From the NCBI GenBank assembly GCA_038212075.1, contig JBBQUV010000002.1, forward strand, positions 7,343 to 71,342: a stretch of DNA of 64,000 nucleotides, in the 5' to 3' direction. This DNA comes from Minisyncoccia bacterium. GTDB lineage: Bacteria; Patescibacteriota; Minisyncoccia; Phycocordibacterales; Phycocordibacteraceae. The stretch's first letter is position 1; the number at the start of each line of letters is the position of its first letter. This document shows positions 9,518 to 51,023 of the stretch, in pieces. Position numbers and translations under genes: made by a program. The notes under the pieces are model-generated. The model worked only from the letters and a program-made list of their open reading frames with translations, ran no database searches and was not told the DNA's origin.

Positions 9518-9518
9518 T

Positions 9519-13427: not shown

Positions 13428-13628
13428 ACCTATTATTATTAGGGGTGTTGATAGGTGGAGAACGTGAAATACTTCAGTGTCTGCAAGCTCAAATCACGAG
13501 CGAATTTTTTATAGTGTGAGGAAAAGGCAGGGAAGATTTTTTCCTCTTTTTTATATGTGGGGAAAACAGCAGACTTTTCCCCAGCGGCCACTACAGTTGT
13601 TAGAATGTTTTTCATAGCCTTATCCACA
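13428..13628. promoter_or_regulatory. Candidate oriC region. It holds a perfect DnaA box TTATCCACA (about 13620-13628), one-mismatch box-like elements (ATCAACA near 13440, TGTGGGGAA near 13545) and AT-rich tracts.
   Basis: Read from the sequence. The dnaA-dnaN intergenic position is the canonical origin location in many bacteria. Confidence 0.5.
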
Positions 13629-14975: not shown

Positions 14976-15063
14976 TGACCGTCATTATACGCGCCGATGC
15001 CAATCGGGGAAGCGTTGCGGCACAGGGGAGAACCTGTTAACATCATGTGTATAACGAGAACCT

Positions 15064-15201
15064 ATGGCAAAACGAACCTACCAACCAAAAAAGAGAAAAC
15101 GAGCAAAAACACACGGATTCCGTGTACGTATGAAAAGTCCGGGAGGCCGCCGTGTTATTACGCGTAGACGCCAAAAGGGTCGTCGCAAGCTCGCCGCCTA
15201 G
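15064..15201 (+). CDS. rpmH: 50S ribosomal protein L34.
   Basis: 45-aa [48 protein letters not shown]. Below the ORF-track cutoff. It sits in the canonical position upstream of rnpA. Confidence 0.85.
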
Positions 15202-15205
15202 CCTC

Positions 15206-15520
15206 ATGATGCCCCGCGGGCGCCGCCTTCCTCGCGCCGCCTTCCCTGCACTCCTGCGGGCAAAAAGGCTCTCTAGCCCTCATTTTGGGGTTTCTGTCGC
15301 TTCTGCCCCACGGGGTGGGTGTGCGGTGGTCATACCCAAAAAAGCCGTACCCCACTCGGTTGATCGGCATCTTTTGAAACGTCGAGTACTTTCCGTGCTT
15401 AAAAAGTGGTATGCCCCCCATATGGCACTTGTGGTGTATGCAAAGAATGGGAGCTCCACCCTTCCCTTCCGCATTATCCAGAGCGAACTTGAGGCACTTC
15501 TTGGTAAACTCACTGTATGA
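15206..15520 (+). CDS. rnpA: Ribonuclease P protein component.
   Basis: RnpA-like basic protein (RLSSPHFGVSVA..., KKAVPHSVDRHLLKRR). The likely start is MMPRGRR at about 15206, not the track start at 15152. Follows rpmH. Confidence 0.75.
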   Translation: MMPRGRRLPRAAFPALLRAKRLSSPHFGVSVASAPRGGCAVVIPKKAVPHSVDRHLLKRRVLSVLKKWYAPHMALVVYAKNGSSTLPFRIIQSELEALLGKLTV

Positions 15521-16254
15521 TTTCCTTTCTCTTCCACACTTATCTTTCCCTACCAATCTACAACCTTCTCATTTTTCTTGTTGGCATCATTCCAACAGGA
15601 GATGTGGGTGTCGCGGTTATTGTTGTGACGCTCGTGGTGAAGGCGGCAGTACTTCCCCTCTCTCTTTCAGCGGTTCGCACCCAGCGTTCGATGAAAGTTA
15701 TTGAACCTGAGTTGAAAGAAATAAAGGAAAAGTATAAAGACGACAAAGAAAAACAAGCAAAAGAAACGTTCGCCCTCTACAAAAAGTACAGCATCAACCC
15801 ATTTGCGAGCTTCGGTACACTTCTTATACAGCTTCCGATTCTACTCGCTCTCTACTGGGTATTTCGTGGAGAAGCACTTCCTACGATAGATGTAGCGTCG
15901 CTCTACCACTTCGTTGCTATCCCAACCGTCATATCCACGAACTTCCTCGGTATCTTTTCGGTAATACAAAAAAGTATTACTCTCGCTGTACTTGCGGCGA
16001 TAACGCAGTTTTTGCAGGCATATTTTGCTATCCCAACGCCGGCAAAAACCGAAAATGCAACCATGCAAGAAGATTTTGGCCGTGCCATGGCGATGCAAGC
16101 GCGGTTCGTCATCCCGCTTATTATTGGCCTTGTTGCCTATGAAACGTCAGGAGCCATCGCACTCTACTTCATAACGAGTAACGTCGTGATGCTTTTCCAG
16201 GAATTTTTAGTGCGTAGAACACCAGCAAAAATTTCCCCTCTAAAGACAGACTAG
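15517..16254 (+). CDS. yidC: Membrane protein insertase YidC/Oxa1 (short Gram-positive type).
   Basis: 245 aa and multi-TM. Conserved AVRTQRSMKVIEPELKEIKEKYKDD and the NP/FG region. Canonical rpmH-rnpA-yidC order. Confidence 0.85.
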   Translation: MISFLFHTYLSLPIYNLLIFLVGIIPTGDVGVAVIVVTLVVKAAVLPLSLSAVRTQRSMKVIEPELKEIKEKYKDDKEKQAKETFALYKKYSINPFASFGTLLIQLPILLALYWVFRGEALPTIDVASLYHFVAIPTVISTNFLGIFSVIQKSITLAVLAAITQFLQAYFAIPTPAKTENATMQEDFGRAMAMQARFVIPLIIGLVAYETSGAIALYFITSNVVMLFQEFLVRRTPAKISPLKTD

Positions 16255-17513
16255 AAACGATACGCCCAAAGTGAGTCGTCGCGTTTATTTACAAATGTCA
16301 GCGTGCTCTCGTTCGGGTCAACCGACAAAGAAATGGCGTCAATTGGTTCTTTGGTGAGTTCTGGCAGATTTGCTACGAGTGTCGCGGCGCGAGCGATAAG
16401 GTCAATTTTCCAAAGGCGATCGCTAAACGCGATTGTGCCCTGATACCACCCGTCGGGTAGTTTCCCCGAAGGGAGTGCTGTAGGCACGGCGCAGTATGCG
16501 CTTTGGTTGTCCGGAGACCACACACATTTTTCCGTAAGCGTTGCCACAGGAAGCGCTATGGTGGTGTGTGTTGCCGTATCGAACACACTAAGAGAAAGTG
16601 AACTGCCTGAAAGTGAACTTACAAGCACAAGTTTTCCAGAAGGACTTGGCAAGGCAGTAAGCCCCGGAAGAGGCCCCAGGATTTTGGTGAACGCCCCTGT
16701 TTTTCTATCAATCAAAAATGCGTATCCGTTTACAGAAGCCGAAGGTTTTGTATAGGCAAGAAGATTTGTTCCGGCAAATGAAACGTGGAGCGCTGAAAGA
16801 AGCGAGGTGAACACGGTTCCTCCGCCACTGCCGTCAGGTTTAGATATCGTCCCGACGGAACCGGAGGTGCTTGGCATAAAAGTGAACACTGTCTGTGTCC
16901 CCTGAGCAAGCACTTGCGAAAGGTCGCGCGCAAGGAACCTACCGTCCGTACCATCGGCCGGCAGTACATAGGTATCAATGTGCTCTGTTTTGTCCGGGTC
17001 AACCGTAAGGAAACGAATAAAAGCGTCGGATCCATCGGAGAGCCATGCTGTTTCCTGTACACCAGGCGCAGTGTGGTTAGTAAGGCGTACGCTCGTGCCC
17101 TGCATCACGTTATAGGTGTACATATTTCCACTCTGGCGATCTATGTAGCGTACTTCGGTGCGGAATGTCGGACCAGTATCAGTTGAAGTTGCATCAGTTG
17201 TTGAAGCAAGCGCGACCGGTGCCGTAGTGCTTGCGTTAATGATGAGCACTCCGTGAGCTACCGGTGACGACGTTATTTTAACTAAGTGAGGAGCAATAAG
17301 GGTGCCTGCAATGGGTGTGTCAGCAGTGTTCTGCGTTGTATCTGCTCCCTGTCCTCCTGAACTAGTGTCTTGGCTTGGTGTGCCAAACGGGTTAGCACCT
17401 GTGCCAGTCTGAGCAACGAGCCCACCACTTCCGTTAAAAAAGTAAAAGTACCCAACAACGATAAGGCCGAGAGCGACAATGGCGAGTGCGGCGATGGTAA
17501 GGGTGCGACGCAT
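16251..17513 (-). CDS. Secreted or membrane-anchored hypothetical protein, possibly a beta-propeller (TolB/PD40-like repeats).
   Basis: N-terminal TM/signal sequence, a Ser/Thr/Gly-rich linker, and repeats with WSPDN/DGSD-type motifs. It is the last gene of the minus-strand T4SS-like island. Confidence 0.4.
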   Translation of the reverse strand: MRRTLTIAALAIVALGLIVVGYFYFFNGSGGLVAQTGTGANPFGTPSQDTSSGGQGADTTQNTADTPIAGTLIAPHLVKITSSPVAHGVLIINASTTAPVALASTTDATSTDTGPTFRTEVRYIDRQSGNMYTYNVMQGTSVRLTNHTAPGVQETAWLSDGSDAFIRFLTVDPDKTEHIDTYVLPADGTDGRFLARDLSQVLAQGTQTVFTFMPSTSGSVGTISKPDGSGGGTVFTSLLSALHVSFAGTNLLAYTKPSASVNGYAFLIDRKTGAFTKILGPLPGLTALPSPSGKLVLVSSLSGSSLSLSVFDTATHTTIALPVATLTEKCVWSPDNQSAYCAVPTALPSGKLPDGWYQGTIAFSDRLWKIDLIARAATLVANLPELTKEPIDAISLSVDPNESTLTFVNKRDDSLWAYRF

Positions 17514-17520
17514 ATTTTTG

Positions 17521-18366
17521 TTATTGACACTCCGCGGTTAGCACGTACGTTGCCCCTGCACACGCTGGCGGTATGGCCAGCGGGCGTAGCGGCGAACTTG
17601 AGTTTTTATCGATACACCAATTTTGCTGTGAGGTTCCTGCTGGGCACTGAATCGTCGGGCAACTCTTGAGATCATTTGCAGGACACGCTTGGCTAGATTT
17701 TACTTTAGGTGTGCAGGAAATATAATTATACGTTCCATAACTACATTTATAGCCCCCAAGAAAATTTGTTTCGGTAACATTGTTTCCTTGAGCATCAGCA
17801 CATACATGGTTGGCGTCTGCACCGCCGGGGGTCTTTTCGCACTGAGCGATTTGTGGGTCACACGAAGCCGCATCGCATTTAAGCAATGTGTCGCCCTGTT
17901 TTAGGGGCGTTGATGACGCGAGCGCATCCGCATTTTGTTGCGACTGAGTCTGTGCAGGCTGGGTTCCTGTCGGTGTAAGGCCGCCGGCGTCGATATTCAG
18001 ATTCAATATGTTTGGGTTGATAACCGTAAAGACAATATACGGAGAAAGTACCAACAGAAGGCCAAGGAGTGCAGTAGTGATGATATGTTTTGCTTCTTCT
18101 ATTTTTGCAAAACCACTATCGCCCATGGTGTACATAACTCCCCCCCGCACAAGTTGTAGTACCGTTAGCACTACTGCTATCCCAATAGTAATTTTATAGA
18201 GTGCATTGAAGAAATTTGGGAGGCTCCCTGCCTTTGCCGCGTCTGAAAAAACAGGAATGTCAGTGAGCGGCACAAAAGCAGTTGGGGTAGAAGCAAGGGC
18301 AATTGATGGGATACCAATGAGTACCACTAAAAAGCCAATAAAGATGAAGCTAGAGCGATTGTTCAT
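17521..18366 (-). CDS. T4SS pilin-like protein (TrbC/VirB2-like topology) fused to a cysteine-rich C-terminal domain.
   Basis: A signal peptide, then two hydrophobic helices (LYKITIGIAVVLTVLQLV...ALLGLLLVLSPYIVF) as in VirB2/TrbC-like pilins, then a Thr/Gln-rich linker. The C-terminal domain of about 130 aa has roughly 14 Cys (CDAASCDPQIAQCEK...CADAQ...CSYGTYNYISC...CPANDLKSCPTIQCPAG...WC...ACAG...AECQ). Confidence 0.5.
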   Translation of the reverse strand: MNNRSSFIFIGFLVVLIGIPSIALASTPTAFVPLTDIPVFSDAAKAGSLPNFFNALYKITIGIAVVLTVLQLVRGGVMYTMGDSGFAKIEEAKHIITTALLGLLLVLSPYIVFTVINPNILNLNIDAGGLTPTGTQPAQTQSQQNADALASSTPLKQGDTLLKCDAASCDPQIAQCEKTPGGADANHVCADAQGNNVTETNFLGGYKCSYGTYNYISCTPKVKSSQACPANDLKSCPTIQCPAGTSQQNWCIDKNSSSPLRPLAIPPACAGATYVLTAECQ

Positions 18367-19343
18367 AGGCCAAAGAAGTTAGTGCCATTTGTTTGCCCAA
18401 AATGCACCGCAAGGGCAGCCTGCCCTGACTGATATGAACCATTTTGCGATGCCTGTGCGGAAAGTGCGGCGGTACCAGGGGTATCGCCTGTAGTTCGTAC
18501 GGTAATAATTGGATCGCTTCCGCTCACTTCCCCGTTCACGCTCCACGTAAATGCAGTCTCCCCTGAGAAGAAATAGGGAACGGCACGAAACGCATCTTCA
18601 CCGCCGTTCATTGAGAAAGAAGTTCCTATTGCCATATCGAAATTTGGTCCAGCAAGGGGGCTACTATGATAAATCACCATCAACGGGTCAACGGGCGCAA
18701 CGGTAATCGCAGTGTGTGCCGCCACACTACCATCTGGTGCTGAAACGGTGAGCGAAACATCGGTGTCGCGGTAGCGTATAGGTGCCGTTGCAGAAAGAAC
18801 CGAATGCCCAATACCTGACTGAGCGGTAAGTAGTTGATTACCTACTTTCCATGTATAGATGAGTGTTTCAGGTGCAAGTAATCCCTTGGCATTTCTAAGC
18901 TCTGGAAGTGCAATAAAACGGAGTCGACCCTCAGAAGCAATAAGATTTGCTCCTGCGTAAAAAGGATGGGTTGTCGACATCGGCTCCATCACAAGCGCCA
19001 CGCTCGCCGGACGGATGACTACTGTTTTTTGATACTTTCCTTGGAGCGATTCTATGGACACCACAATAGTGTCTACCGCTCCTCCCGCTCCAACTTGGAA
19101 CGCCGCTCCTTGTGAACCACTTCCCTTACTCAAGACCGTGCCATTTGCTGATATGGTGACAACAGCAGTTGCAAGGTCAACAAGGGTGCTTTGTGGAGTG
19201 ATCGTAACCGTTTCGTACGGTGCAGGGTACTGGGGAAAAATCCCAACCGTAAGCGGGTCGGCTCCGAGCATCTGAGCGTGCACTGGTATGGTGCAGGCAA
19301 GAATGGCAACACAGCTTCCTAAGAAAAATCCCCAATGTCGCAT
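18363..19343 (-). CDS. Secreted hypothetical protein in the T4SS-like island (signal peptide; probably beta-rich).
   Basis: N-terminus MRHWGFFLGSCVAILACTIPVHAQ looks like a signal peptide. No recognisable family motif. Confidence 0.4.
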   Translation of the reverse strand: MRHWGFFLGSCVAILACTIPVHAQMLGADPLTVGIFPQYPAPYETVTITPQSTLVDLATAVVTISANGTVLSKGSGSQGAAFQVGAGGAVDTIVVSIESLQGKYQKTVVIRPASVALVMEPMSTTHPFYAGANLIASEGRLRFIALPELRNAKGLLAPETLIYTWKVGNQLLTAQSGIGHSVLSATAPIRYRDTDVSLTVSAPDGSVAAHTAITVAPVDPLMVIYHSSPLAGPNFDMAIGTSFSMNGGEDAFRAVPYFFSGETAFTWSVNGEVSGSDPIITVRTTGDTPGTAALSAQASQNGSYQSGQAALAVHFGQTNGTNFFGL

Positions 19344-19392
19344 AGATAAAGTATACCGCCTCCATGCACATCATCGAAAAGTGCACTGGGTA

Positions 19393-20217
19393 CTAAACGA
19401 TGTACTTCATAATTCCGGAGGCATGCATTTTTTCAAGTGCTCCGTTGAATAGTTTGACGATTTTCTTTTCCTTATAGAACGCCATTAGTACGATAATGGT
19501 ATTTGCAGGGATAATTTGTAGAAACGGTATAATTTCAATAAGAATTGCAATAAAAAGGCGTTTCCAAAGCCACTTAATTACGGCTTTTTTCCACCAGCCG
19601 CCGCTAATTTTATTCCACGTCCACAACGTTAAGATGGCGCCGAGCACAATCCCTAAAAAAGAAGCAAGAATTACTCCAATACCTGTTAAATCTGCAGGTA
19701 GATCAAGAATATCTTTAGCAAGACCAACACTAAACATGAAAATAGGGAACGAAGGTTTGGCTGGCGGTGCCTCGGTCGCCAATTTTTGAGCATCAGTTGT
19801 ATGGAATTCCTCTCCTTTCTGTCTGAAGTCTTCCGCAATATCATCTAAGGTTTTGTGTATATGTGCACGTACGAGTTGAGGACTTACTCCATTTATGGAA
19901 TAGCGGGATCGCGAGGTAGTGACTTCGGACTCGCTTTCAGTTTCTTCTTCATATTCAGATTCTTCCTCTTCGGAATCTTGTGATTGTGTAGAAGAACGTA
20001 GTTGCTGGAACCGTCGTGTATTTCGTCCGTAGCGTGCAATTCCTGATTCAGTTTCAGCCGCACCAGCCGCCGCTCCCTCAGACGTTGCCGCACCCGCGGC
20101 TCCTTCAGCAGCGCCGGCTGCTCCAGTGGCAGCCAATCCTTCTGCGGCCGCTCCCCCTACAACCGCTCCTTCCGCCGCCCCACCAGCAACCGCTGCTGCA
20201 ACGATGAGTGGTGGCAT
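19393..20217 (-). CDS. Membrane protein with a low-complexity Ala/Gly-rich, acidic N-terminal region and C-terminal TM helices.
   Basis: N-terminus (GAAEGAx)n, then SEEEESEYEEETESESE, then a C-terminal hydrophobic segment with Trp-rich amphipathic stretches. T4SS island member. Confidence 0.4.
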   Translation of the reverse strand: MPPLIVAAAVAGGAAEGAVVGGAAAEGLAATGAAGAAEGAAGAATSEGAAAGAAETESGIARYGRNTRRFQQLRSSTQSQDSEEEESEYEEETESESEVTTSRSRYSINGVSPQLVRAHIHKTLDDIAEDFRQKGEEFHTTDAQKLATEAPPAKPSFPIFMFSVGLAKDILDLPADLTGIGVILASFLGIVLGAILTLWTWNKISGGWWKKAVIKWLWKRLFIAILIEIIPFLQIIPANTIIVLMAFYKEKKIVKLFNGALEKMHASGIMKYIV

Positions 20218-20220
20218 AGA

Positions 20221-22050
20221 TTATTGCGCTCCCCCGCCGCCTTCCGCGTCTAACCGATCTTTTTCACGCTTTATAGAAAGGAGTTGTGAAGGATCGGAAG
20301 TGATAATTTGGTCTTCGGTGTATGACGCCACTATTTTTATGGCAACGTGTTTAAGCCCTGCAAAAAAGAGCCCCTCCCCTACTCCGGATTCAAGAAGCAG
20401 ATATTTTTCCTCGTCGGTAAGATTGAACGTTTTCTGGAGCACATCAATAGTGGTCGGTGATTGTTTTAATAAAAGCTGGATAGAAGAGTTTGTCAGAATG
20501 GGGCGCCCGTATGGTGAGGTTAAGAAGTCTTCAACGTCTTGGGTGATAGTTGCAACACCAAGGAAGTATTTGCGTCCGCGTTTTGCAAGCGAATAGAGGA
20601 ATGATGCCGTATCTTCCGACTTCATCATCCACCACGCTTCGTCGATAACAAGCAGACGTTTTTTGAGCTCACGACGAATGGCATTCCAAATGAAGTGCGT
20701 GATGATATACATCGCCACCGGTTTTAGTTCGTCTTCCATATCTCGCACCGAGAACACAATGAATTGTTTGTTGATGTCGACGTTTGTTGGCTGGTTTAAG
20801 AAACCTGACCACGTACCATGGGTATATTTTGACAGACGTTGCACCAGCGACTCACTTCCTTCCATGCCAGAAAGCACGGCTTCAAAGTCGGAGAGGAGTG
20901 GTGGCTCTACACCGCTAAAGTCACGATCGCCTGAAATATCTTTTAAGGCATAGGTCTCACTAATGGCACGGTCAACAATAGCGTCTTCCTCTGGCGTGAG
21001 CCCGCCAAGCATAATGCGGAAGAGTCCAACAAGGGTGATGATGTTAGAGCGAAGAATATCGCCTGGTTCCTCCCCTTCTCGTACTACCGGAAGATCAAAG
21101 GGGTTGATGTGGTGTTCACTCGAAAGAGAAATATCGAACATGCGTCCACCAGCCGCTTCCGCAAGATATTCATACTCACGTTCTGGGTCAATCACAATCA
21201 CGTCGGTATCAAACATAAGCGAACGAAGAATTTCGAGTTTCACCGCAAATGACTTTCCGGAACCAGACTTTGCAAAGGTTACGGAGTTGTAGTTTTCAAG
21301 CGAGAATCGATCAAAAAGAATGAGCGAAGAGTTATGGCGGTTAATGCCAAAGAGAATGCCGTGGTCACTCGTAAGATCAAATGATACAAACGGAAAGATA
21401 GAAGAAAGTGGCGAAGAGTTGAGTTTTTGATGCACATTCAATTCATCAAGTTCCAGTGGAAGTGTGGAGCGGAAACCTTGTTCCTGTTGAAACAGTGCTG
21501 GCTTTGTATATACGAGCTTCGCATCCAAAATACCGCGAATTTCACCCTCAACCTTATCCAATTCTTCTTTTGAGTTTGCGTAAAGGGTCATATAGAGCCC
21601 AATCTCAAAGAGTTTTTCCTGCACTTGTTGGAGTTGATCGCGCAGATTTTCAATATCTTGGTATGCCGTATCAAGCATTGGGTCGCGTACCAATCCTTTT
21701 TGTTCGCGTTCTGCTATCTGGCTCTGCACTTCCGCGACTTTCTTTTGAAATTGACGAAGCACCTCACCTGTTTCAAGTGGGTGTATGAAAATACTGATAT
21801 CAAGTACTTGGTCGAGGTTAATGATGGGCGTAAACCAACTATCAGTCAAAAAGCGTGGATAGGAAATAGTGTAGTAGGAACGGGCAAATTTTTCGCCAAG
21901 TTCAAGTTCGCGAGCACTTACTTTGAGCGCCGCCGGCGCAATCATGTCGGCTAAATCAAGTGCGCCCTGCGCATAAATATCACGCGGCAAAATCGGCGTA
22001 ATTTTCGGGTCTTCTTTTTTCCCGCGATTAAGAAAATCAAGTAATGCCAT
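20221..22050 (-). CDS. virB4: VirB4/TrbE/PrgJ-family T4SS ATPase, C-terminal NTPase part.
   Basis: 609 aa. Walker A AKSGSGKSF and Walker B LLVIDEAWWMM, with VirB4-like length and arrangement. Confidence 0.75.
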   Translation of the reverse strand: MALLDFLNRGKKEDPKITPILPRDIYAQGALDLADMIAPAALKVSARELELGEKFARSYYTISYPRFLTDSWFTPIINLDQVLDISIFIHPLETGEVLRQFQKKVAEVQSQIAEREQKGLVRDPMLDTAYQDIENLRDQLQQVQEKLFEIGLYMTLYANSKEELDKVEGEIRGILDAKLVYTKPALFQQEQGFRSTLPLELDELNVHQKLNSSPLSSIFPFVSFDLTSDHGILFGINRHNSSLILFDRFSLENYNSVTFAKSGSGKSFAVKLEILRSLMFDTDVIVIDPEREYEYLAEAAGGRMFDISLSSEHHINPFDLPVVREGEEPGDILRSNIITLVGLFRIMLGGLTPEEDAIVDRAISETYALKDISGDRDFSGVEPPLLSDFEAVLSGMEGSESLVQRLSKYTHGTWSGFLNQPTNVDINKQFIVFSVRDMEDELKPVAMYIITHFIWNAIRRELKKRLLVIDEAWWMMKSEDTASFLYSLAKRGRKYFLGVATITQDVEDFLTSPYGRPILTNSSIQLLLKQSPTTIDVLQKTFNLTDEEKYLLLESGVGEGLFFAGLKHVAIKIVASYTEDQIITSDPSQLLSIKREKDRLDAEGGGGAQ

Positions 22051-22052
22051 AG

Positions 22053-22751
22053 CTACTGTGGTCGATCATACACTGCCGGACTCGCTCCTTGCTGGTGTAT
22101 CGGACTTTCAAGCTCACCCAAGTTGAACGAACGGTACAAAAGTTCAATTACTTCTTCGGTACCAAGTGCCGCGGCACGCACGCCTGAACCCGAGAGCCCA
22201 CCAGCAACAAGCGACATGCGTTGCTCAAGCTGTATGCGGTGTTCATCAAAGGATGTTGTAAATTCAGTCGCTCCTGACCCTGACGAGTGACCAAGAAATG
22301 GCAATGATGTCTTTATGGCACTGATACCGGGAGCACTGTATGGCACGATGACGTAGAACGTTTTTGCCATAATGTTTGCGGCATCGGAAAATCCGCGTAC
22401 AAATTGTATATACTCGCGTACCTGAATTTTCATTAGCTCTGTTCCCTGGAGCGGTTCGCGCTCAGCCAGAAGTGACAAGTACGGACGGATATCCATTTTG
22501 CGAGAGTGCACTACAATTTGGATTGAAAAATCAAGGGTATTTAAAAAGTTTTGGAATCCGCCAATAATTCCACGCTGTTCGTCTTCTGATTTCAGCGCGA
22601 AGTTGACTGACGAACACATAAGTACGCCGCGATAACCACCGTCTTTAAGGAGAATAACGCCGTTGCGTACTTCTTTCACAGGAACAAATGTTTGTGTGGC
22701 TTTTGTGTCAGGCATATTACTGATCGAGCTGTTCGTTACTGCGTATGTCAA
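22053..22751 (-). CDS. VirB4 N-terminal domain-like protein, encoded as a separate ORF directly upstream of the ATPase part.
   Basis: 232 aa. VPVKEVRNGVILLKDGGYRGVLMCSSVNFALKSEDE resembles the N-terminus of Gram-positive VirB4 homologs (PrgJ/TcpF: I.LKDGSY..V.E...INF.L). Its stop codon abuts the start codon of 20221..22050. Confidence 0.5.
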   Translation of the reverse strand: MTYAVTNSSISNMPDTKATQTFVPVKEVRNGVILLKDGGYRGVLMCSSVNFALKSEDEQRGIIGGFQNFLNTLDFSIQIVVHSRKMDIRPYLSLLAEREPLQGTELMKIQVREYIQFVRGFSDAANIMAKTFYVIVPYSAPGISAIKTSLPFLGHSSGSGATEFTTSFDEHRIQLEQRMSLVAGGLSGSGVRAAALGTEEVIELLYRSFNLGELESPIHQQGASPAVYDRPQ

Positions 22752-23145
22752 GCGACCACGCTAGGTCGTGAAGCTTCCCGCGAGTGAGTCCAAGTTTTGC
22801 ACGAGCGTTTTTATCTGTCTTCGGTGCCGCTTTCGGCGTCATTGCCTCAATCTCTTTGTCGGTTTTAGGTATTTTTTTCCATAAATACAGCCTCCCTCCC
22901 GTGAAGTATACAAACCCTGCTTCCAAAATATCTTCAAAAGGCTTGTTGTTGACGCGGTAGAACGCCAGTGCACCTGTAAGTCCAGCAACAGGAAGCGCAA
23001 CAAGGACAGCAAAAAGTAACGGAAGGTAGAAAAAAGCGATAGCGCATACGCCCGCACCGCCCGCAATATAAATAAATTGCTTCAGCGTGAATGGTCCGAA
23101 AATCTTATCTTCAATCTCAATGAATTGAGGAACTTGGTACTCCAT
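22717..23145 (-). CDS. PrgI/TcpE-family (VirB3-like) T4SS membrane protein.
   Basis: MEYQVPQFIEIEDKIFGPFTLKQFIYIAGGAG... followed by two TM helices. This matches the PrgI family consensus (VP..i..edkifG.lTlRQ). It sits immediately upstream of virB4, as in Gram-positive conjugation loci. Confidence 0.6.
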   Translation of the reverse strand: MEYQVPQFIEIEDKIFGPFTLKQFIYIAGGAGVCAIAFFYLPLLFAVLVALPVAGLTGALAFYRVNNKPFEDILEAGFVYFTGGRLYLWKKIPKTDKEIEAMTPKAAPKTDKNARAKLGLTRGKLHDLAWSLDIRSNEQLDQ

Positions 23146-23183
23146 TCCTTTAGTATATCAGCCCGCACACGCACATTGCGTCG

Positions 23184-23777
23184 TTAATGACTGCTAGAAG
23201 ACGCGGGCTTGCTTGAGCCACTTGCTGACTTACCCGCACCTCCACCACTGCCAGCAAATTTTCGAATTTGCACGCCAAGCCATCCTATAAGAAATGGAAA
23301 TCCAAACAACAACTCAAGAGCACCCATACTCATTCCAATTGAAGCACCAAACCCAACCGTGTGGCCAGTAAGTGCCGCCGCACCAGAATAAGAAGCTGCC
23401 CCAGCCCCCGCGATACCTGCCGCCGCCGCGCTCCCTGCCCCAGCGAGTGTCCAGAGAGCAACAGCTCCTGCCCCGCCAGTAAACGATGCCCCACTTGCGT
23501 ACCCACTTCGCATAAGGGAAAAGAGAGACTTTTTTTCAACAGAAGGTACCGCCGCGGTTTGCGGCGGTACAGTATTCGGCTGAACACCTACCGACTCATT
23601 TGGTTGCACTGCCCCTCGCTCACGTAATTGCTGGAGACGTTCCGCACGTACCGTTACCGTTTCGGGGTCTGGTGGAGACACAACGGGATTACTTTCAACC
23701 GTTACCGGTTGTTCTTGCGTTACTTCGTCTTGGTGAGGGTTCTGTTCTAGACCTCGTTCGGGGGTTGATTCAGCCAT
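23184..23777 (-). CDS. Small membrane protein with Gly/Ala-rich hydrophobic helices. A second pilin-like protein is possible.
   Basis: 197 aa. Polar Pro/Gln-rich N-terminus, then two Gly/Ala-rich hydrophobic segments and a Ser/Gly tail. Confidence 0.35.
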   Translation of the reverse strand: MAESTPERGLEQNPHQDEVTQEQPVTVESNPVVSPPDPETVTVRAERLQQLRERGAVQPNESVGVQPNTVPPQTAAVPSVEKKSLFSLMRSGYASGASFTGGAGAVALWTLAGAGSAAAAGIAGAGAASYSGAAALTGHTVGFGASIGMSMGALELLFGFPFLIGWLGVQIRKFAGSGGGAGKSASGSSKPASSSSH

Positions 23778-23799
23778 TACCCACTAGAATACCACTTCT

Positions 23800-24657
23800 C
23801 TATTCGGGTGTTTCGCGGTACGGATCAACACCATAGTTTTTAAGTACCGCATGGAGTGAATCTTTTGTTGTTGGCGCGGCGGTTGTTTGAGGGTCTTGTG
23901 CCGGCGTTCCAGCTGGCGTTGGTCGCCATTGCGGTTGTACAGGCGGCATCTGTGGAGGTTCAGGCAGTATTGGTGTTGGTAGCGGAACTGGAACAGAAAC
24001 GGGTTGTATGTAAGGAGCCATAGACGGCAGTTGTGCAGGAAGCGGTGTAGGTACGCTTGGCACAGACGGTATCGAAGAATATGACGCAGGTGGCATCGTT
24101 GGCATAGGAAGCCCTGTTTCTTTTGGAGCAAGGGGTTCATATCGCGGCATAGTTGGTGCGGATTCTTGGGGGATCTCCGGTTGTTTAATCGGGGCACTTG
24201 CTTGTGCAAAAATTGCAGGCGGTGGCGGTGGTTGCTTTACCGGCATGGGCGCTACATATAAAGGAGCGCTTTCTTCGGGGATAGGCGTTGCGACCGGCGT
24301 GGGTGCGGGTATGGGTTCCGGTGTTGGTTCTTCTTGAGGCTCCGCCGGTGGCGCATTACGTATTTCATCGCGAAGTACCTTGAAAACTCGCTCGTTCAAC
24401 GCACTAATGATTGCGTCTGCGCTTGCGTCCGGTACCCCCATTTGGGCAAGTTCAGACTGGAACTGCACGGGACTTGAAAGCCCAAGGAGCATATTTGTTG
24501 CCGCCTGCGCGATTAGTCCAACCGTGTCTACATGCAGTCCGTAGGTTCCTGCCAGTTCTTGTAATAATTCAAAGAGTTTTGTGCTCGCAATATACGCACG
24601 TACCGGTTCCGGTAGTTTTTTATATGCATCACCCATTTGTTCAGGAGTAGGATTCAT
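23800..24657 (-). CDS. Proline-rich hypothetical protein.
   Basis: 285 aa. Helical N-terminal domain of about 100 aa, then long PxP-rich low-complexity sequence. Confidence 0.4.
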   Translation of the reverse strand: MNPTPEQMGDAYKKLPEPVRAYIASTKLFELLQELAGTYGLHVDTVGLIAQAATNMLLGLSSPVQFQSELAQMGVPDASADAIISALNERVFKVLRDEIRNAPPAEPQEEPTPEPIPAPTPVATPIPEESAPLYVAPMPVKQPPPPPAIFAQASAPIKQPEIPQESAPTMPRYEPLAPKETGLPMPTMPPASYSSIPSVPSVPTPLPAQLPSMAPYIQPVSVPVPLPTPILPEPPQMPPVQPQWRPTPAGTPAQDPQTTAAPTTKDSLHAVLKNYGVDPYRETPE

Positions 24658-24662
24658 ACGTT

Positions 24663-26933
24663 TTATATTCTGCGTCCGCGATTACGCGTGTTATCTCCAG
24701 CCGCCCCTCCCGCACTGCGGTAGTTATTGGCATTACTCGACTGCGTTCCACCTCCGGCAGGCGCGGCGGGTGGTGCTTTTACCTTCCAGTTCATTTGACC
24801 GGCGGAGAATGGGTTTTTGGCAAAATATGCTTCGATATCTTCACGCTGCTTCCCTGTCGTCGTCAGAAGTTCAGTACGTAATTGCTCAAGCTGTTTCGGA
24901 TTGAATTTATTTTTTGTGAGTGCGGCTTGAATAGCAGATGCATCAAAGGCTTTCAGAAGTTGTTTGTTTTTAACAATAACCTCAGCCTCAACTTTCATTT
25001 TCGTTTCCGCATTCATGTTGTTCCAAATCTGGAGGGACTCAGGATGACCGCGCTCAATTCTTCCGGCAGGCGTGTTTTGTCGCGCCATTTTACGGAGCGA
25101 ATCTGACAAGTCGTCACTTTTATCCAATGCTTCCAATTGGGTCTCCTTAAGCGCACTCTTAAATTCCGTAGTGTCATGCTGGATAATTCTCTTGAATTTC
25201 TCGTTGTCTGCCTTTGCCAATTGAACCAAATCCTTAGTAGTGAGATCTTTCGCGTTTGATTCATCGTAGCGTGCAAAACGAGCTGTACCCATTTTATGTT
25301 GAACATCTTCAGGCACTTCCTTGCTATCCATCAGTTTTGCAAATTTCTCCGGACTCAATACCTCACCAAGTTTTTTAACTTGCTCGTCGCTCATAGTCTT
25401 AATAGCCTCCTCAAGACCGTGCAAGTTCATCTCACGAGCGCGACCCTCAGCTTCTTCCTTATCTGCTGGGTTACCGCTTTGTGCCTTATCGAGAGCATCT
25501 TTCAAATCCTGCCCCTCAAGTGCAAGGTGCAATTCTTTGCCGCGTTCTTTCAGTTCTTTCTCACGATCATCATGTGATTGGAAACCTCCAATTTTTGCGC
25601 CAGAGGCACCCTTTAGACCAGAATTGATACCATCATCAACGGCTGTGCCCGCAAACCCAACTGCCCACTTCCCCACTTTGCCACCAAGTGTTGTTGGCTT
25701 CCAGAGGGCGTGTTTCTGCGCACGTTGCCCCGCTTTTACGTTGTATGCCTTTCTGAGTGCCGCGGCACCACGGCCAACAGTTTCGCGACCAAGAACGGCA
25801 AAAGGATACGACACCGCTTTCGTAGCAATGTTTGTGGCAAACGCCGCTCCATAGGCACCCATCTCTTTTGCCACCGTAAGTGCGGTAATCAGAAAGCCAA
25901 TGACAAGAGCGAAAAGAAACAGTGTGGAGAATGTCCCTGGCCCGCTTGGGTTAAACATGTCGGTAAGAGGGGCGCTAAAAAGATCGGGATTAGACGCGGC
26001 AACACCTTCGCCTATTTTGAGACCGACAAACACTAAGAGAAGAAGCACGGGAGCAAAAAAGGACTGCGCAAGAAGCGTATCCCACCATTTTTTGGCATAG
26101 CCCTCAAGAAACGGCACGGCAAGACCCGCAAAACCGATAGGTGAAAGCACCATAAGAAATACCAGCACCACCGCGCGAGTCATAAGCATGATGGCCATCG
26201 CTATCAATACCATCATTAACACCAACTCAACGACAGAGAGGCCCAGATACCCTGTAAGTCCAAAGTCGTATTTAAACCCGGGGTGTATTACGGTATTTAC
26301 TTTACTGTCACCCATTATCATTCCTGCAACTCCATAGTTCGGATTTGCAGCACAGCTTGTATCTAAAAATGACTTTTTCAAACAACCACTCCCATCTTGG
26401 TTGATAGATTGGCTGTAAAGAGCCGCACTTAAAACGTTCGACACATCAATAATTGCTTGAGACGCGAGAAGACTGAAGTTTAAAAGCACGGCAAAAATGA
26501 TAAGGCGTGGGAGCGTTTTTTTCACTTCGTAGCCATGGATGTCAAGAATGGTTGCAACGCCCATAAAGACGAAACCAAATATGAGTCCGATGTTGGCTAC
26601 ATCGCGAAGTACACCCCAGCCCGCGTAGATACCTCCATTTTTCCCAAGGAAAGCGGCAAATCCAAAAACAGTTTCCGAAATAATAATATTAAAAAGAAAT
26701 GCGGTAATGGAAAGAAAAACACCAATAAGTTCATAAATGGCATACCCAATACCGCTAAACGCGCAGGTAATTGGGCTACCGACACAGCCGACAAAATTAA
26801 ATAAAGCATCCGTTGCTCCAGCATGAGCAACTATTGGTACTTCAAGAATCAATACCAGTACAAAGACAGATAAAATGCGCCAAGGCCCTTTACCGTAGGT
26901 GGCGAAGAGTTTTTTAAAGGTAGTCCTCACCAT
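24663..26933 (-). CDS. VirB6/TrbL-like polytopic membrane protein with a large C-terminal charged coiled-coil domain.
   Basis: 756 aa. At least six TM helices in the first 400 aa or so, then a hydrophilic Lys/Glu-rich region. Domain architecture and position within the T4SS island support the call. Confidence 0.5.
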   Translation of the reverse strand: MVRTTFKKLFATYGKGPWRILSVFVLVLILEVPIVAHAGATDALFNFVGCVGSPITCAFSGIGYAIYELIGVFLSITAFLFNIIISETVFGFAAFLGKNGGIYAGWGVLRDVANIGLIFGFVFMGVATILDIHGYEVKKTLPRLIIFAVLLNFSLLASQAIIDVSNVLSAALYSQSINQDGSGCLKKSFLDTSCAANPNYGVAGMIMGDSKVNTVIHPGFKYDFGLTGYLGLSVVELVLMMVLIAMAIMLMTRAVVLVFLMVLSPIGFAGLAVPFLEGYAKKWWDTLLAQSFFAPVLLLLVFVGLKIGEGVAASNPDLFSAPLTDMFNPSGPGTFSTLFLFALVIGFLITALTVAKEMGAYGAAFATNIATKAVSYPFAVLGRETVGRGAAALRKAYNVKAGQRAQKHALWKPTTLGGKVGKWAVGFAGTAVDDGINSGLKGASGAKIGGFQSHDDREKELKERGKELHLALEGQDLKDALDKAQSGNPADKEEAEGRAREMNLHGLEEAIKTMSDEQVKKLGEVLSPEKFAKLMDSKEVPEDVQHKMGTARFARYDESNAKDLTTKDLVQLAKADNEKFKRIIQHDTTEFKSALKETQLEALDKSDDLSDSLRKMARQNTPAGRIERGHPESLQIWNNMNAETKMKVEAEVIVKNKQLLKAFDASAIQAALTKNKFNPKQLEQLRTELLTTTGKQREDIEAYFAKNPFSAGQMNWKVKAPPAAPAGGGTQSSNANNYRSAGGAAGDNTRNRGRRI

Positions 26934-26936
26934 ACG

Positions 26937-28388
26937 TTAGTGCAGGATCGTACTGCACGATGTGGCAATGTTTTTCATTTGCGTATAGAGCGACGGGGCA
27001 GAATTGTCTTTGGTATCTTGGGACTCAGTCTCTGCATAAGCTAGGTCAGTAGCGGAAGGCATAGAAGGGTCATGGAGCGCATTTTGAAATTCTATTCCTA
27101 CATCCGCAGTTTTTGTAGCATCAGATCCGGCGGCAGTGGCGTCCGTCTGGACTTTTTGTAAAAGGCTAAGAGCAGTTGTTGCTTTAGTGAGCGCCGCGCC
27201 AGCATCGCTCAGTGTTTTTGTTACGAGCGCGGTATTTTGGTCATTTGCTCCAGTCACACAACTGGTAAGTGCTGTTTGTGCGGTCTTTGCTATCGACTGA
27301 ATCGTCTGCCAATTTGTTTGAAACTGCGTTATGTCTTTTGTTTGAGACGCAATAGCATCGCTTACATTTCCGGAAATATTTCCTGCGGCACCGTTGTACT
27401 GAGAGGGGTCGGTTGCCTTATCGATAAACCCGTTACCGCCCGAAGAAACGGAAGAAACACCAGAGAGCCCACTGCCACCAAGTACATTACTGGTAAGTTG
27501 AGACATAAGCGCACTTACTATTTCGTTAAATTCGTCTGCCGTCACAAGAGTGTCCCCTGTAAGACCAAGTGTTTTGTTTATCTGTGATTGAATCACGGAT
27601 CCGGGTGTTTGGACGGGGCCACATCCAGAGCCAGAGGTGTCACGTGCGCCGAGTTGTACTGTGGCCTCGGAACCCGAGGAACCGCCACTCGGGCAATTGC
27701 GCCACGAAAGGAATCCATTGCCCCAATCGAGCTCGGTCTTTTGAACGGTTTTTGCCGTTTCAGTTTGATTCGATAGCTCCTCCTGGCCAAGACGCTGAGC
27801 GCCCAACGGATTGTTTTCCGGATTTGCAACAGCAGAAAAGAATGCGCTAATACCACCCTTAGAAAAATCGCCACCAAGAAACGCCGTATCGTCAGGAGTT
27901 ACTTTATTTAATGTGTAGGGGTGTGATTGGGTAAACGAATCTTTACTGGTTGAAAGATAGTATTTGCTCCCTACGCTTTGGGCAATTTGGCTTTGAAATG
28001 GCGAACGAAGCGCGGGGTCGCTTGCGAGTTTGGCGAGGAAACTACCTGCAACACGGTCGCTCACTTGCTGAAGGGTGCTGGTAAGGTCGGTTACGAAGGC
28101 CGGCGAGCCTTGGAATCCAGAATTAATCCAATTCACCATACTTTTGGTCATCGTTTGGATAGCCATTTTGCTCACCATCCACGCAAGAGGGTCAAGGGCG
28201 AACTCTTTATTATTCGTCGCAAATTGGAGCGCCTTCGTGGCGATCGCGATGATATGGGTAGCCCCTGTTTGAATTTCGGTTACGATATCTTCAACCGGGT
28301 ACGCATATGCCGGTTTTGGGATGCTCCAGAATGAACCGCTAAGGAGCAAAAGTGCGATGAGCGCAGATGCGAGTGATCGTTTTTTCAT
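26937..28388 (-). CDS. Secreted hypothetical protein (signal peptide; Ser/Thr/Gly-rich).
   Basis: N-terminus MKKRSLASALIALLLLSGSFWSIPKPAYA. T4SS island member. Confidence 0.4.
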   Translation of the reverse strand: MKKRSLASALIALLLLSGSFWSIPKPAYAYPVEDIVTEIQTGATHIIAIATKALQFATNNKEFALDPLAWMVSKMAIQTMTKSMVNWINSGFQGSPAFVTDLTSTLQQVSDRVAGSFLAKLASDPALRSPFQSQIAQSVGSKYYLSTSKDSFTQSHPYTLNKVTPDDTAFLGGDFSKGGISAFFSAVANPENNPLGAQRLGQEELSNQTETAKTVQKTELDWGNGFLSWRNCPSGGSSGSEATVQLGARDTSGSGCGPVQTPGSVIQSQINKTLGLTGDTLVTADEFNEIVSALMSQLTSNVLGGSGLSGVSSVSSGGNGFIDKATDPSQYNGAAGNISGNVSDAIASQTKDITQFQTNWQTIQSIAKTAQTALTSCVTGANDQNTALVTKTLSDAGAALTKATTALSLLQKVQTDATAAGSDATKTADVGIEFQNALHDPSMPSATDLAYAETESQDTKDNSAPSLYTQMKNIATSCSTILH

Positions 28389-29401
28389 GGTGTTGTGGAA
28401 GTGGCTTCGGAGAGAGCTGTCGCTGTTTTATAGAAGCCGTAGCCAGGTTCGCTTGGCTGGAACATGACTCCCCCCTCGGTAAATAGATGGCCTACAGAGA
28501 TGATAGTTTTCGTAAAGTTTGCAGAGTCTTTGTCTGCAGAACCAAGTCCAAGCATCCCGCGGATAGGATCGGTATCGATTGACGCCAAGTCTCCCACTGT
28601 TGCACCAAAACGAGCCGTCGCATTCACCAGCGCAAGGTGAGCTTGTGCCATTTCTTGGGGAACGGAGACAGCAACAAGTGCCTTAGCAGTATCAAGGTAA
28701 GACGTTGAAATTGTCTTCAGGTGTGCGATCGCTGTTTTGTCATTTCGCTCTACCGCGTCGGCAAAATACACGTCTGCATGGTAAGGCACGTTTGCGCGGT
28801 GTTGTTTAAATGCCTGTTCTACTTGTATAGCGTATGACTTTAGTGCAGTACTTCCCGTACCCGATACCTTTATTTGTGATGCAGAAAACGCGTCTATTTG
28901 TGTACGTGTTTTAAGAAGGTCACCAATGGCTCCCTGCACAAAGGTTTGCATCTGGGCGGCAGTTGGTTTGGTATCGCCGCGACTCACAACGTAGTTGTTG
29001 AAGAAGAGTTTAGAAAACTGGTCGGTAAGTGAACCGGGCGTCGCGTTGTTTCCCGGAATGTCGCTTGCAACTATTCCCGGCGTTGTTGTCGCGGTCGTAG
29101 CGACCCCGCCGTAGTGAGCGGTGGCAAGCCCTTTAGCTACCGCGTCGCCATCGGTTAGGTCAGCACGAACGGAATGTGCATTGTTTGGGTCTGTCCCATA
29201 TAACGCTTCTTCCCAGTCAGGGAGCCCATCGCTGTCAGAGTCTTTGGCGGCATACGCTTTCAGAAGATTATCGGTAGAACCGGCGTTCACCAATGTCGTA
29301 CTACCTGTATGACCGGAAAGAATGTATGCACCAACGATGATTACTATCGCAATGAGTAGCGATGCAGAGAGAATCGTTTTTCGTGAGTCAAGAAAAGCCA
29401 C
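28385..29401 (-). CDS. Membrane-anchored hypothetical protein with an acidic Ca-binding-like motif (DSDSDGLPDWEE). It may be a VirB8-like bitopic protein.
   Basis: N-terminal TM helix plus an extracytoplasmic domain. First gene of the island. Confidence 0.35.
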   Translation of the reverse strand: MAFLDSRKTILSASLLIAIVIIVGAYILSGHTGSTTLVNAGSTDNLLKAYAAKDSDSDGLPDWEEALYGTDPNNAHSVRADLTDGDAVAKGLATAHYGGVATTATTTPGIVASDIPGNNATPGSLTDQFSKLFFNNYVVSRGDTKPTAAQMQTFVQGAIGDLLKTRTQIDAFSASQIKVSGTGSTALKSYAIQVEQAFKQHRANVPYHADVYFADAVERNDKTAIAHLKTISTSYLDTAKALVAVSVPQEMAQAHLALVNATARFGATVGDLASIDTDPIRGMLGLGSADKDSANFTKTIISVGHLFTEGGVMFQPSEPGYGFYKTATALSEATSTTP

Positions 29402-29467
29402 AGCAGTACATAAATAGTATCACGCACGCGTGCTTCCCCACCCACGTGGTATGCGCCAAGATGTGTA

Positions 29468-30256
29468 TTAATCGACCGCACTCAGGTTCTGCACCAGATT
29501 CTGCCAGACAGAGAGCGAAAGATCCTCCGCGCGCGCCTTTGGCGGTATGTTCGAAGCAGTATATGCCTTACTAATAGTCTCTTTTTTTGCCACCGCGGTT
29601 AGGTTTCCTGCAAGAAGCTTCCGTTTGTGAGCAAACCCAGCTCGTAGGATTTCAAAAAACCGCGTTTCTTCTTGTTCATTTTTAAACGGCATATGAATAC
29701 CCGTGATGGTGAGCACTGCAGAGTCAACAGAGGGCGCCGGCACAAACGCACCGCGCGGAACGGTGAAAAGATATGCGGGGACACCGTATGTTTTTACGGC
29801 GATGGAAAGCAAGCTTTCTTTTTTTGATCGCGCAATGCGCTCTGCAACTTCTTTTTGCACGAGTATGGTTATGGATGTCGGTTTGTTTTTTGTTGTCAAA
29901 AAGGTACGGATGATTTCACCCGTAATGTAATACGGAATGTTTGCAACAAGCGCATACGGGCGAGTGATTGATGCGGTATCAAATGTGCGAACGTCACCTA
30001 CAATAAGCGTTAATTTCTTTTCAGAAATGTCCGATGCAAATGTTTCGGTCAATTTTTCCGCTAATGCTTTGTCAGTTTCAATGGCAACCACATGCGTTGC
30101 ACGTGCAAGAAGTGGTTTCGTAAGCATGCCGGTGCCGGGACCAATCTCAAGTACGGTTTGGTTTTCAATGTGCGCGCCGTCCGCAATGCGTTCAGCGGTG
30201 CGCGCATGCATGAGAAAATTTTGCCCCAGTGATTTTTTTGCGCGGATATTAGACAT
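29468..30256 (-). CDS. rsmA: 16S rRNA (adenine1518/1519-N6)-dimethyltransferase RsmA/KsgA.
   Basis: SLGQNFLMHARTAERIADGA...VLEIGPGTGMLT is the KsgA SAM-binding signature. The start is most likely MSNIRAKK, which overlaps the helicase stop. Confidence 0.85.
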   Translation of the reverse strand: MSNIRAKKSLGQNFLMHARTAERIADGAHIENQTVLEIGPGTGMLTKPLLARATHVVAIETDKALAEKLTETFASDISEKKLTLIVGDVRTFDTASITRPYALVANIPYYITGEIIRTFLTTKNKPTSITILVQKEVAERIARSKKESLLSIAVKTYGVPAYLFTVPRGAFVPAPSVDSAVLTITGIHMPFKNEQEETRFFEILRAGFAHKRKLLAGNLTAVAKKETISKAYTASNIPPKARAEDLSLSVWQNLVQNLSAVD

Positions 30257-43500: not shown

Positions 43501-43544
43501 CAGAACATAAAAAGAGTCGCTCACGCGACTCTTTTTATGTTCTG
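43501..43544. terminator. Bidirectional terminator hairpin (CAGAACATAAAAAGAGTCGC-TCAC-GCGACTCTTTTTATGTTCTG). Its right arm overlaps the comEC stop codon.
   Basis: 20-bp stem read from the sequence. Confidence 0.65.
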
Positions 43545-51022: not shown

Positions 51023-51023
51023 A

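Follow-up and report, generated by a model that had tools for sequence, protein, structure and literature searches.

A cluster of twelve genes from a Minisyncoccia bacterium (GenBank assembly GCA_038212075.1, contig JBBQUV010000002.1) very probably encodes a chromosomal, vertically inherited type IV secretion system (T4SS) of the 'Patescibacteria clade', a group of systems that derive from the MPF-FATA type; its owner is one of the class Paceibacteria (Parcubacteria). The genes, here called g1 to g12, lie at positions 16251-29401 of the 64-kb stretch of DNA that we analysed (the window). Five of them form a recognisable secretion core—a VirB4 ATPase, a TrsD-like protein, a PrgI/VirB3 protein, a VirB6/TrbL-like protein and a VirB2/T4SS_pilin-like protein—and the other seven encode poorly annotated envelope proteins. 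As the system has already been described in papers from 2023 to 2025, the finding is real but not new, and the high novelty implied by an earlier note on this DNA falls away.

A published survey found VirB4 in 2,417 of 3,035 Patescibacteria genomes, nearly all of it in one monophyletic clade nested in MPF-FATA; genes for TrsD, PrgI/VirB3, VirB6 and pilins resembling VirB2 lay close to virB4 (Quinonero-Coronel et al., 2025, Microb Genom; PMC12102498). Of the 3,035 genomes, only 103 had a relaxase, and no more than 15 of the relaxases were near virB4. A VirD4 homologue was present in 2,918 genomes but hardly ever in the vicinity of virB4. The typical neighbours of virB4 in Paceibacteria were dnaA, dnaN, ksgA, rnpA and rpmH. 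The authors concluded that the system had been co-opted for a non-conjugative use, possibly the import of host macromolecules (PMC12102498). In Southlakia epibionticum, transposon sequencing (Tn-seq) marked the T4SS genes and a pilin array as essential to growth as an epibiont (Wang et al., 2023, Cell; PMC10633639).

Gene layout and secretion core

Every open reading frame (ORF) of at least 150 amino acids (aa) in the window was scanned against Pfam and several of them were also scanned against NCBIfam. Positional orthologues were drawn from 80 related genome loci; detection counts refer to 81 loci (L001-L081). The listing of ORFs agrees exactly with the twelve consecutive minus-strand genes reported in the earlier note; they are separated by gaps or overlaps of no more than 49 nt and their tight spacing gives the cluster an operon-like layout. 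Promoter and terminator scans of positions 15000-33000 returned counts no better than those from shuffled sequence, so it is gene spacing alone that speaks for an operon. The genes are as follows:

g1, 28385-29401, minus strand: 338 aa; N-terminal membrane anchor, thrombospondin-type-3 calcium-binding repeat and all-helical (four-helix-bundle) ectodomain; first gene of the cluster
g2, 26937-28388, minus strand: 483 aa; signal peptide, then a mostly helical secreted protein
g3, 24663-26933, minus strand: 756 aa; VirB6/TrbL-like polytopic membrane protein
g4, 23800-24657, minus strand: 285 aa; no membrane segment; conserved N-terminal region of ~100 aa, then a proline-rich part
g5, 23184-23777, minus strand: 197 aa; low-complexity protein with a Gly/Ala-rich hydrophobic C-terminal region
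g6, 22717-23145, minus strand: 142 aa; PrgI family, VirB3 equivalent; two-helix membrane hairpin
g7, 22053-22751, minus strand: 232 aa as the longest ORF; TrsD-like, detached VirB4 N-terminal domain
g8, 20221-22050, minus strand: 609 aa; VirB4 ATPase of the monoderm CD1110/MPF-FATA type
g9, 19393-20217, minus strand: 274 aa; N-terminal half Gly/Ala-rich then acidic and of low complexity, C-terminal half with hydrophobic stretches
g10, 18363-19343, minus strand: 326 aa; signal peptide, then a beta-rich secreted protein with three repeats containing W-x-x-(N)G
g11, 17521-18366, minus strand: 281 aa; signal peptide, VirB2/T4SS_pilin-like two-helix core, long C-terminal extension
g12, 16251-17513, minus strand: 420 aa; N-terminal membrane anchor and TolB-like beta-propeller ectodomain; last gene, convergent with yidC

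The ATPase g8 matched the NCBIfam model conju_CD1110 ('VirB4-like conjugal transfer ATPase, CD1110 family') with an E-value of 3.2e-114 and 382.8 bits against a cutoff of 325; the alignment covers profile positions 183-733, leaving the first ~180 positions missing. It also matched Pfam P-loop_TraG (2.2e-25), the VirB4 of the monoderm Thermoanaerobacter (PDB 4ag5; 1.4e-43) and, by BLASTP, residues 215-772 of pCF10 PrgJ (27% identity, E 7e-43), while a phmmer search with TrsE reached it at 1.3e-38. In the translation, neither Walker A (SGSGKS) nor Walker B (LLVIDEA) is disrupted and, judged by these motifs, g8 is a catalytically intact VirB4.

Immediately upstream and adjoining g8, g7 matched the NCBIfam models VirB4_plasma (5.6e-7, profile positions 92-233) and conju_CD1110 (3.7e-5, positions 4-149), so that g7 and g8 jointly tile the CD1110 profile over positions 4-149 and 183-733. 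Because g8 lacks the N-terminal region and g7 matches N-terminal profiles of VirB4, g7 supplies the missing part; on this profile coverage VirB4 is in effect split over two polypeptides, arranged like trsD-trsE of pGO1. Similarity to TrsD itself is weak (0.066 for the TrsD family in NCBIfam; E 0.009 against pGO1 TrsD with hhalign), and the g7 orthologue in locus L001 carries PF26593 (TraC-like). The longest ORF overlaps the PrgI gene by 35 nt, alignments of orthologues start near residue 13 of the window protein and translation probably begins at the ATG at 22715. The PrgI protein, g6, matched Pfam PF12666 at 5.3e-11 (43.3 bits against a cutoff of 27) and has a hydrophobic stretch at residues 23-65.

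Neither g3 nor g11 matched any Pfam or NCBIfam model by itself, so positional orthologues were collected for both. For g11, 35 of the 42 orthologues matched PF18895 (T4SS_pilin; best 3e-11) and 16 matched TrbC/VirB2, while the window protein matched a family hidden Markov model (HMM) built without it at E 1.2e-47; on these profile matches, the predicted identity of g11 as a VirB2-like pilin is solid at the level of the family. The pilin profile gave a negative result against pGO1 TrsB. The VirB2-like core lies at about residues 27-125 and has a median pairwise identity of 35% among orthologues. Beyond it, the window protein carries a C-terminal extension of 156 aa with 12 cysteines (17521-17990); across species the extension is essentially unalignable, ranging from 2 to 210 aa with 0 to 16 cysteines, mostly in even counts. 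This tail may be a surface-exposed specificity domain, and those parts of the literature on Patescibacteria T4SSs that we could consult contain no description of a hypervariable pilin tail.

Assignment of g3 as VirB6-like is plausible, as topology and position fit, although weaker than that of the pilin. A hydropathy scan gave several hydrophobic stretches between residues 16 and 360, followed by a long, charged, coiled-coil-like C-terminal tail ('extended VirB6'). Eight of 39 orthologues matched Pfam TrbL/VirB6 (best 4.6e-6) and one of 39 matched TrbL_4, the L001 orthologue giving a faint TrbL match; the window protein matched a family HMM built without it at E 2.9e-129. With hhalign, the family profile aligned to pGO1 TrsL (E 2.2e-4, probability 45%) and, through the same conserved helices, to pCF10 PrgH (E 1.5e-3). 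Against PDB sequences it found only coiled-coil proteins for the C-terminal tail and no VirB6 chain.

The core named in the earlier note thus stood for VirB4 and PrgI; its VirB6-like and VirB2/TrbC-like proteins hold for the families, not for the window proteins taken singly, and it had overlooked the TrsD-like detached VirB4 domain at 22053-22751. The proline-rich, acidic low-complexity and signal-peptide proteins that it described are visible in the translations, with signal peptides in g2, g10 and g11 and N-terminal membrane anchors in g1 and g12.

Chromosomal setting and conservation

On both sides the cluster is flanked by housekeeping genes, and it sits 1-3 kb from dnaA/rpmH:

dnaN, 12327-13427, low-coordinate side
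dnaA, 13629-14975, low-coordinate side
rpmH, 15064-15201, low-coordinate side
rnpA, 15152-15520, low-coordinate side
yidC, 15517-16254, low-coordinate side, convergent with g12
ksgA, 29468-30313, high-coordinate side
uvrD, 30249-32174, high-coordinate side

GC content is steady across the cluster, with no compositional shift; the 64-kb window contains no tRNA genes and no flanking direct repeats were found. Together with the conservation of flanks and gene order described below, these observations rule out a mobile island, so the earlier note's word 'island' does not hold in the sense of a mobile element.

No ORF in the scanned set matched a relaxase, a coupling protein of the VirD4/TraG/TcpA kind or an integrase, and there was no match to T4SS-DNA_transf, TraG-D_C or FtsK-like models anywhere in the window, which spans about half of the 133-kb source contig. 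Two ATPases of the T2SSE family, a Pfam family that also includes VirB11, are encoded at 4019-5689 and 54598-56349. Both carry an MshEN N-terminal domain and the second adjoins PilC and pilin-like genes, so both are of the PilB type rather than VirB11. The earlier note's statement that the window lacks relaxase, VirD4 and VirB11 is therefore borne out, although the weight that it gave to the missing VirB11 should be reduced, as monoderm T4SSs normally lack this protein.

Among the VirB4 homologues listed, the best 120 share 84-93% identity with g8 and their named sources are almost all Patescibacteria, Paceibacterota, Parcubacteria or Minisyncoccia, with one from Bacillota. A scan of one genome per GTDB species recovered at least 561 loci encoding relatives. 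In the best 80 of these, VirB4 is 74-87% identical, and the labels include Paceibacterota, Kaiser-, Nomura-, Taylor-, Zambryski- and Campbellbacteria and some Saccharibacteria. The order uvrD-ksgA-g1-g2-g3-g4-g6-g7-g8-g10-g11-g12-yidC-(rnpA-rpmH)-dnaA-dnaN is kept in L001 and recurs, wholly or partly, in 80 species loci.

Retention differs from gene to gene. Detection was near-universal for g6, g7, g8 and g10 (76-81 of 81 loci; g6 in 76, g7 in 79 at a median identity of 55%), lower for g11 and g12 (60-69 of 81; g12 in 69) and lower again for g1-g4 (31-47 of 81), while g5 and g9 were detected by sequence in essentially none of the 81. One sublineage (L012-L014, L017-L027 and L031-L034) has unrelated ORFs upstream of PrgI in place of the g1-g4 module, to which the VirB6-like gene belongs; the cluster therefore consists of two separable modules.

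In 55 of 58 loci, VirB4 showed higher conservation than DnaA (medians 76% and 55%), a comparison somewhat biased by the choice of loci on VirB4 similarity, and VirB4 holds 74-78% identity where DnaA is only 51-56% identical. This difference points to vertical inheritance and strong purifying selection.

Around the low-coordinate flank, the layout is dnaN<-dnaA, then rpmH->rnpA->yidC, with a dnaA-rpmH spacer of only 88 bp. One perfect DnaA box lies at 13620-13628 in the dnaA-dnaN spacer; overall, DnaA-box matches numbered 17 against 11.8 expected, which is not significant. The cumulative GC-skew minimum falls near 15-17 kb. If the origin lies here, the T4SS operon, like many genes on its right-hand side, would be transcribed towards the origin, head-on to replication.

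Accessory proteins and other genes of the window

Among the accessory proteins, g10 is the most widely retained (80 of 81 loci). It has no Pfam match; its family profile gave weak matches to Ig-like proteins (Hoc, 1.9e-4; an antigen receptor, 0.019), and its repeats may tentatively be called Ig-like. The family profile of g12 matched only TolB proteins in the PDB (E ~1e-3) and aligned to Escherichia coli TolB over 133 propeller columns with hhalign (probability 64%, E 6.7e-5), which suggests a TolB-like beta-propeller ectodomain and agrees with the beta-propeller-like protein of the earlier note.

The secreted protein g2 contains the conserved motifs WINSGFxGxPxF and TPGSVI and has 384 homologues, all unnamed or from Patescibacteria, some with a precomputed PF13605 match. 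Its AlphaFold2 (AF2) model is of moderate confidence (pLDDT 69), with a C-terminal bundle above 90, and comparison with the PDB gave no significant match in fold or sequence. Identification of g2 as a VirB5-like protein or a hydrolase gained no support: with the moderate-confidence model, Foldseek returned only generic helical matches (E > 0.2). VirB8 was rejected as an identity for g1, for which hhalign comparisons with PrgL and PrgD were negative and the confident predicted model is a four-helix bundle, not an NTF2 fold.

No Pfam or NCBIfam match was obtained for g4, which is present in 36 related loci and whose window protein matched an HMM built without it at E 1e-27. For g5, BLAST found no match in any of the 81 loci and a Gly/Ala-rich ORF occurs at its position only in a few close relatives; it is specific to its lineage and perhaps not part of the core. 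Like g5 a low-complexity membrane protein, g9 is variable between species and had only 2 BLAST matches among the loci; at its position about half of the related loci have an ORF with 2-4 predicted membrane segments, while elsewhere VirB4 abuts g10.

Comparison of the accessory families with the Prg proteins of pCF10 and the Trs proteins of pGO1 gave no convincing similarity, and among all family HMMs set against the T4SS proteins of these two plasmids, only VirB4 scored better than marginally. No CHAP or SLT hydrolase and no NTF2 domain was matched by Pfam or NCBIfam in g1-g12. A wall hydrolase is encoded 3 kb upstream of the cluster, on the opposite strand and divergent from uvrD:

LysM and peptidase M23 protein, 32424-33533, plus strand: Peptidase_M23 5e-31 and LysM 7e-24 (Pfam)

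The gene also adjoins uvrD in L001, L004, L068, L070 and L079. Its product is a possible functional stand-in for VirB1, its link to the T4SS being an inferred one; proteins containing M23/LysM were counted as VirB1 candidates in the published survey, in which VirB1 homologues were associated with virB4 in Paceibacteria (PMC12102498).

Elsewhere, the window holds a type IV pilus cluster (49613-56349) with PilB (54598-56349), PilC (53381-54595), an N-methyl pilin-like gene (51024-51743) and large unannotated ORFs at 49613-51085 and 51610-53418, as well as a second, solitary PilB at 4019-5689. The ComM-like protein (34055-35617) is an Mg-chelatase-family ATPase. The pilus genes, ComEC, ComM-like protein and RecJ are the usual competence and adhesion kit of Patescibacteria and are separate from the T4SS. 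Between ComEC and RecJ lies a small protein with an RNase H/RVT_3 domain (45040-45555, minus strand), the longest ORF of which overlaps the end of the RecJ ORF by ~75 nt.

A YebC/TACO1-family ORF (8960-9995) encodes only 185 aa, matches profile positions 2-56 of 160 (second-plus-third-domain) and overlaps the start of the RuvC ORF; it could be a truncation, a frameshift or a lineage-specific short form. Three minus-strand ORFs, 36065-37747 (560 aa), 6565-7554 (329 aa) and 42413-42901 (162 aa), had no Pfam match of note, and the first two had no NCBIfam match even at permissive thresholds.

Possible function and comparison with known systems

In Gram-negative T4SSs, VirB4, VirB3 and VirB6 form an inner-membrane platform that extracts and polymerises VirB2, and a pilus is made without VirD4. 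The cluster holds exactly this subset, with the VirB6-like and VirB2-like proteins as assigned above. By analogy, then, we lean towards a machine that would assemble a VirB2-type filament or a short conduit through the monoderm wall. At the cytoplasmic membrane, g6 and g3 would be the docking site of the g7/g8 ATPase, which would power the building of a pilus, or of a short conduit across the wall, from g11; the variable, disulfide-rich C-terminal domain of g11 would be displayed on the surface of the filament. The part that spans the wall would consist of, or be stabilised by, the anchored and secreted proteins g1, g2, g10 and g12, and it is with the finished structure that these bacteria, whose genomes are reduced, would touch the host cell that they rely on. 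Its cargo might be exported effectors or imported host macromolecules, both being possible, while conjugative export of DNA would be unlikely.

A more specific proposal, which we hold to be doubtful, is that the hypervariable, disulfide-rich tail of the lone VirB2-like pilin coats the pilus and sets host specificity, in the role of the pilin arrays of Saccharibacteria, and that g1, g2, g10 and g12 form a new lineage-specific wall-spanning module replacing VirB8, VirB1 and the adhesins of Gram-positive systems.

Several points weigh against reading g1-g12 as a Patescibacteria-clade T4SS that builds such a structure. The placement of VirB4 in that clade is suggested by its nearest neighbours; g3 and g11 went unmatched when taken by themselves; and the prototypes of pCF10 and pGO1 gave weak scores in comparison (E 1e-2 to 2e-4). 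Within the cluster, neither Pfam and NCBIfam on g1-g12 nor hhalign and the predicted model of g1 revealed a VirB8-like or VirB1-like protein, and the absence of VirD4 and relaxase holds for the window only, not for the genome. To our knowledge, no pilus has been seen for any Paceibacterium, and we know of no structural precedent for a pilin with a 156-aa tail.

The alternative that we consider most seriously concerns the cargo and direction of the same machine rather than its identity: it might import DNA or other macromolecules, like ComB of Helicobacter pylori or Ced of Sulfolobus, drawing host DNA or nucleotides inward and possibly passing DNA to ComEC, ComM and RecJ. We regard this as unlikely, although the authors of the published survey prefer the idea that DNA or other macromolecules of the host are imported (PMC12102498), and the absence of a relaxase or coupling protein nearby speaks for it. 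The window does encode ComEC (43535-45013), the ComM-like protein (34055-35617) and RecJ (45479-47188), genes that the earlier note had tied to the cluster; however, they lie 5-26 kb away with unrelated housekeeping genes between, and RecJ and ComEC are within a few kb of the type IV pilus cluster (49.6-56.3 kb). VirB4 gave a weak partial match to CedB (35 bits against a cutoff of 700), but this is limited to ~70 residues of generic ATPase core. In Southlakia, deletion of comEC abolished transformation and left the cells viable, whereas the T4SS is essential (PMC10633639; PMC12857230), a contrast that a 2025 review listing these systems also stresses (PMC12857230). The essential role of the T4SS is therefore not exerted through ComEC, and the tie drawn in the earlier note is not supported.

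Two further explanations are far less probable. In one, the cluster would be an ordinary conjugative element, such as an integrative and conjugative element (ICE) or the remnant of an integrated plasmid, with its relaxase and coupling protein beyond the 64-kb window; the incomplete coverage of the contig leaves room for this, VirB4 belongs to the CD1110 family typical of ICEs and plasmids of Firmicutes, and genes for coupling proteins are often far from virB4 in Patescibacteria, most of whose genomes have VirD4 homologues (PMC12102498). Yet the same housekeeping flanks (ksgA/uvrD; yidC/rnpA/rpmH/dnaA) recur in those related loci that reach them, the window has no integrase, tRNA, flanking repeat or compositional shift, a VirB4 whose evolution is slower than that of DnaA is out of keeping with a mobile element, and the published scarcity of relaxases (103 of 3,035 genomes, 15 near virB4; PMC12102498) argues in the same direction. 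With no relaxase or coupling protein nearby, a conjugation machine is improbable, and an ordinary conjugative element very much so. Slightly less credible still is that a conjugation system acquired long ago has decayed to a remnant without function. Coupling protein, relaxase, VirB1 and VirB8 are indeed unrecognisable in the cluster and g5 and g9 are poorly conserved proteins of low complexity, but all twelve ORFs are intact and tightly packed, the Walker motifs of VirB4 are preserved, and VirB4 keeps 74-87% identity across species in which DnaA is only about 51-56% identical. Moreover, this is a reduced genome, in which dispensable genes tend to go, and the homologous Southlakia system is essential (PMC10633639).

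The reading of g1-g12 as a Patescibacteria-clade T4SS accords with the earlier note's view of a Gram-positive-type T4SS that probably serves secretion, adhesion or exchange rather than conjugation, a view upheld by the profile matches and by the published interpretation (PMC12102498; PMC10633639; PMC12857230). The system matters because, in a phylum whose gene content is drastically reduced, ~80% of the genomes keep it, apparently repurposed from Gram-positive conjugation for a role in an obligate host-attached lifestyle. This locus shows VirB4 under stronger constraint than DnaA and otherwise adds little beyond another well-preserved example of a known system. What interest remains lies in that striking constraint, in the split VirB4 and in the conserved, unannotated envelope proteins and variable-tailed pilin, which could guide structural and host-range studies.

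Among known systems, the Ptl system of Bordetella, VirB of Brucella, ComB of H. pylori and Ced of Sulfolobus are VirB4 machines without a relaxase, several of them also without a coupling protein. They are precedents for non-conjugative use, although they are diderm or archaeal and have other accessory sets; no family of ComB-specific or Ptl-specific components, and none of the ComB2-3, ComB6-10 or CedA/A1/A2 partners, was detected among the cluster proteins. Closer are the conjugative MPF-FATA systems of Firmicutes (pGO1 trs, pIP501 tra, pCF10 prg/pcf), whose VirB4 is likewise of the CD1110 family. The order trsC-trsD-trsE in pGO1 is that of the VirB3-like, TrsD and VirB4 genes in the window, and a monoderm architecture is common to both, no VirB7, VirB9 or VirB10 having been detected in the window. 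The window cluster differs from these systems in having no relaxase, VirD4/TcpA or CHAP/SLT hydrolase within it, no LPXTG adhesin and no plasmid or ICE context, and in possessing a VirB2-type pilin with the PF18895 signature.

The Southlakia T4SS (SEML1_0006-0019; Saccharimonadia) shares the core order VirB6-like ... PrgI, TrsD-like (293 aa), VirB4 (~612 aa), has PF18895-type pilins in the cluster and, like the window, no relaxase or coupling protein there (PMC10633639). It has six short pilins in an array, two very large VirB6-like proteins and an NTF2-like (VirB8-like) protein, whereas the window has one long-tailed pilin, one VirB6-like protein and no recognised NTF2-like protein; of the two, Southlakia is the one in which essentiality was examined.

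The nearest match is the Patescibacteria-clade T4SS itself (PMC12102498), with which the window cluster has in common a VirB4 of MPF-FATA ancestry, the TrsD-like and PrgI/VirB3 proteins, a plausible VirB6-like protein, the VirB2-like pilin, the lack of a relaxase near virB4 and a chromosomal site near dnaA, dnaN, ksgA, rnpA and rpmH. Some details of the window cluster are not spelled out in the parts of that paper available to us: the tiling of the VirB4 profile by g7 and g8, a lone pilin with a long, hypervariable, cysteine-rich tail instead of an array, and the accessory architectures, namely the TolB-like propeller, the thrombospondin-type-3/four-helix-bundle protein and the repeat-containing protein. 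In everything essential, the window cluster does not differ from the published system.

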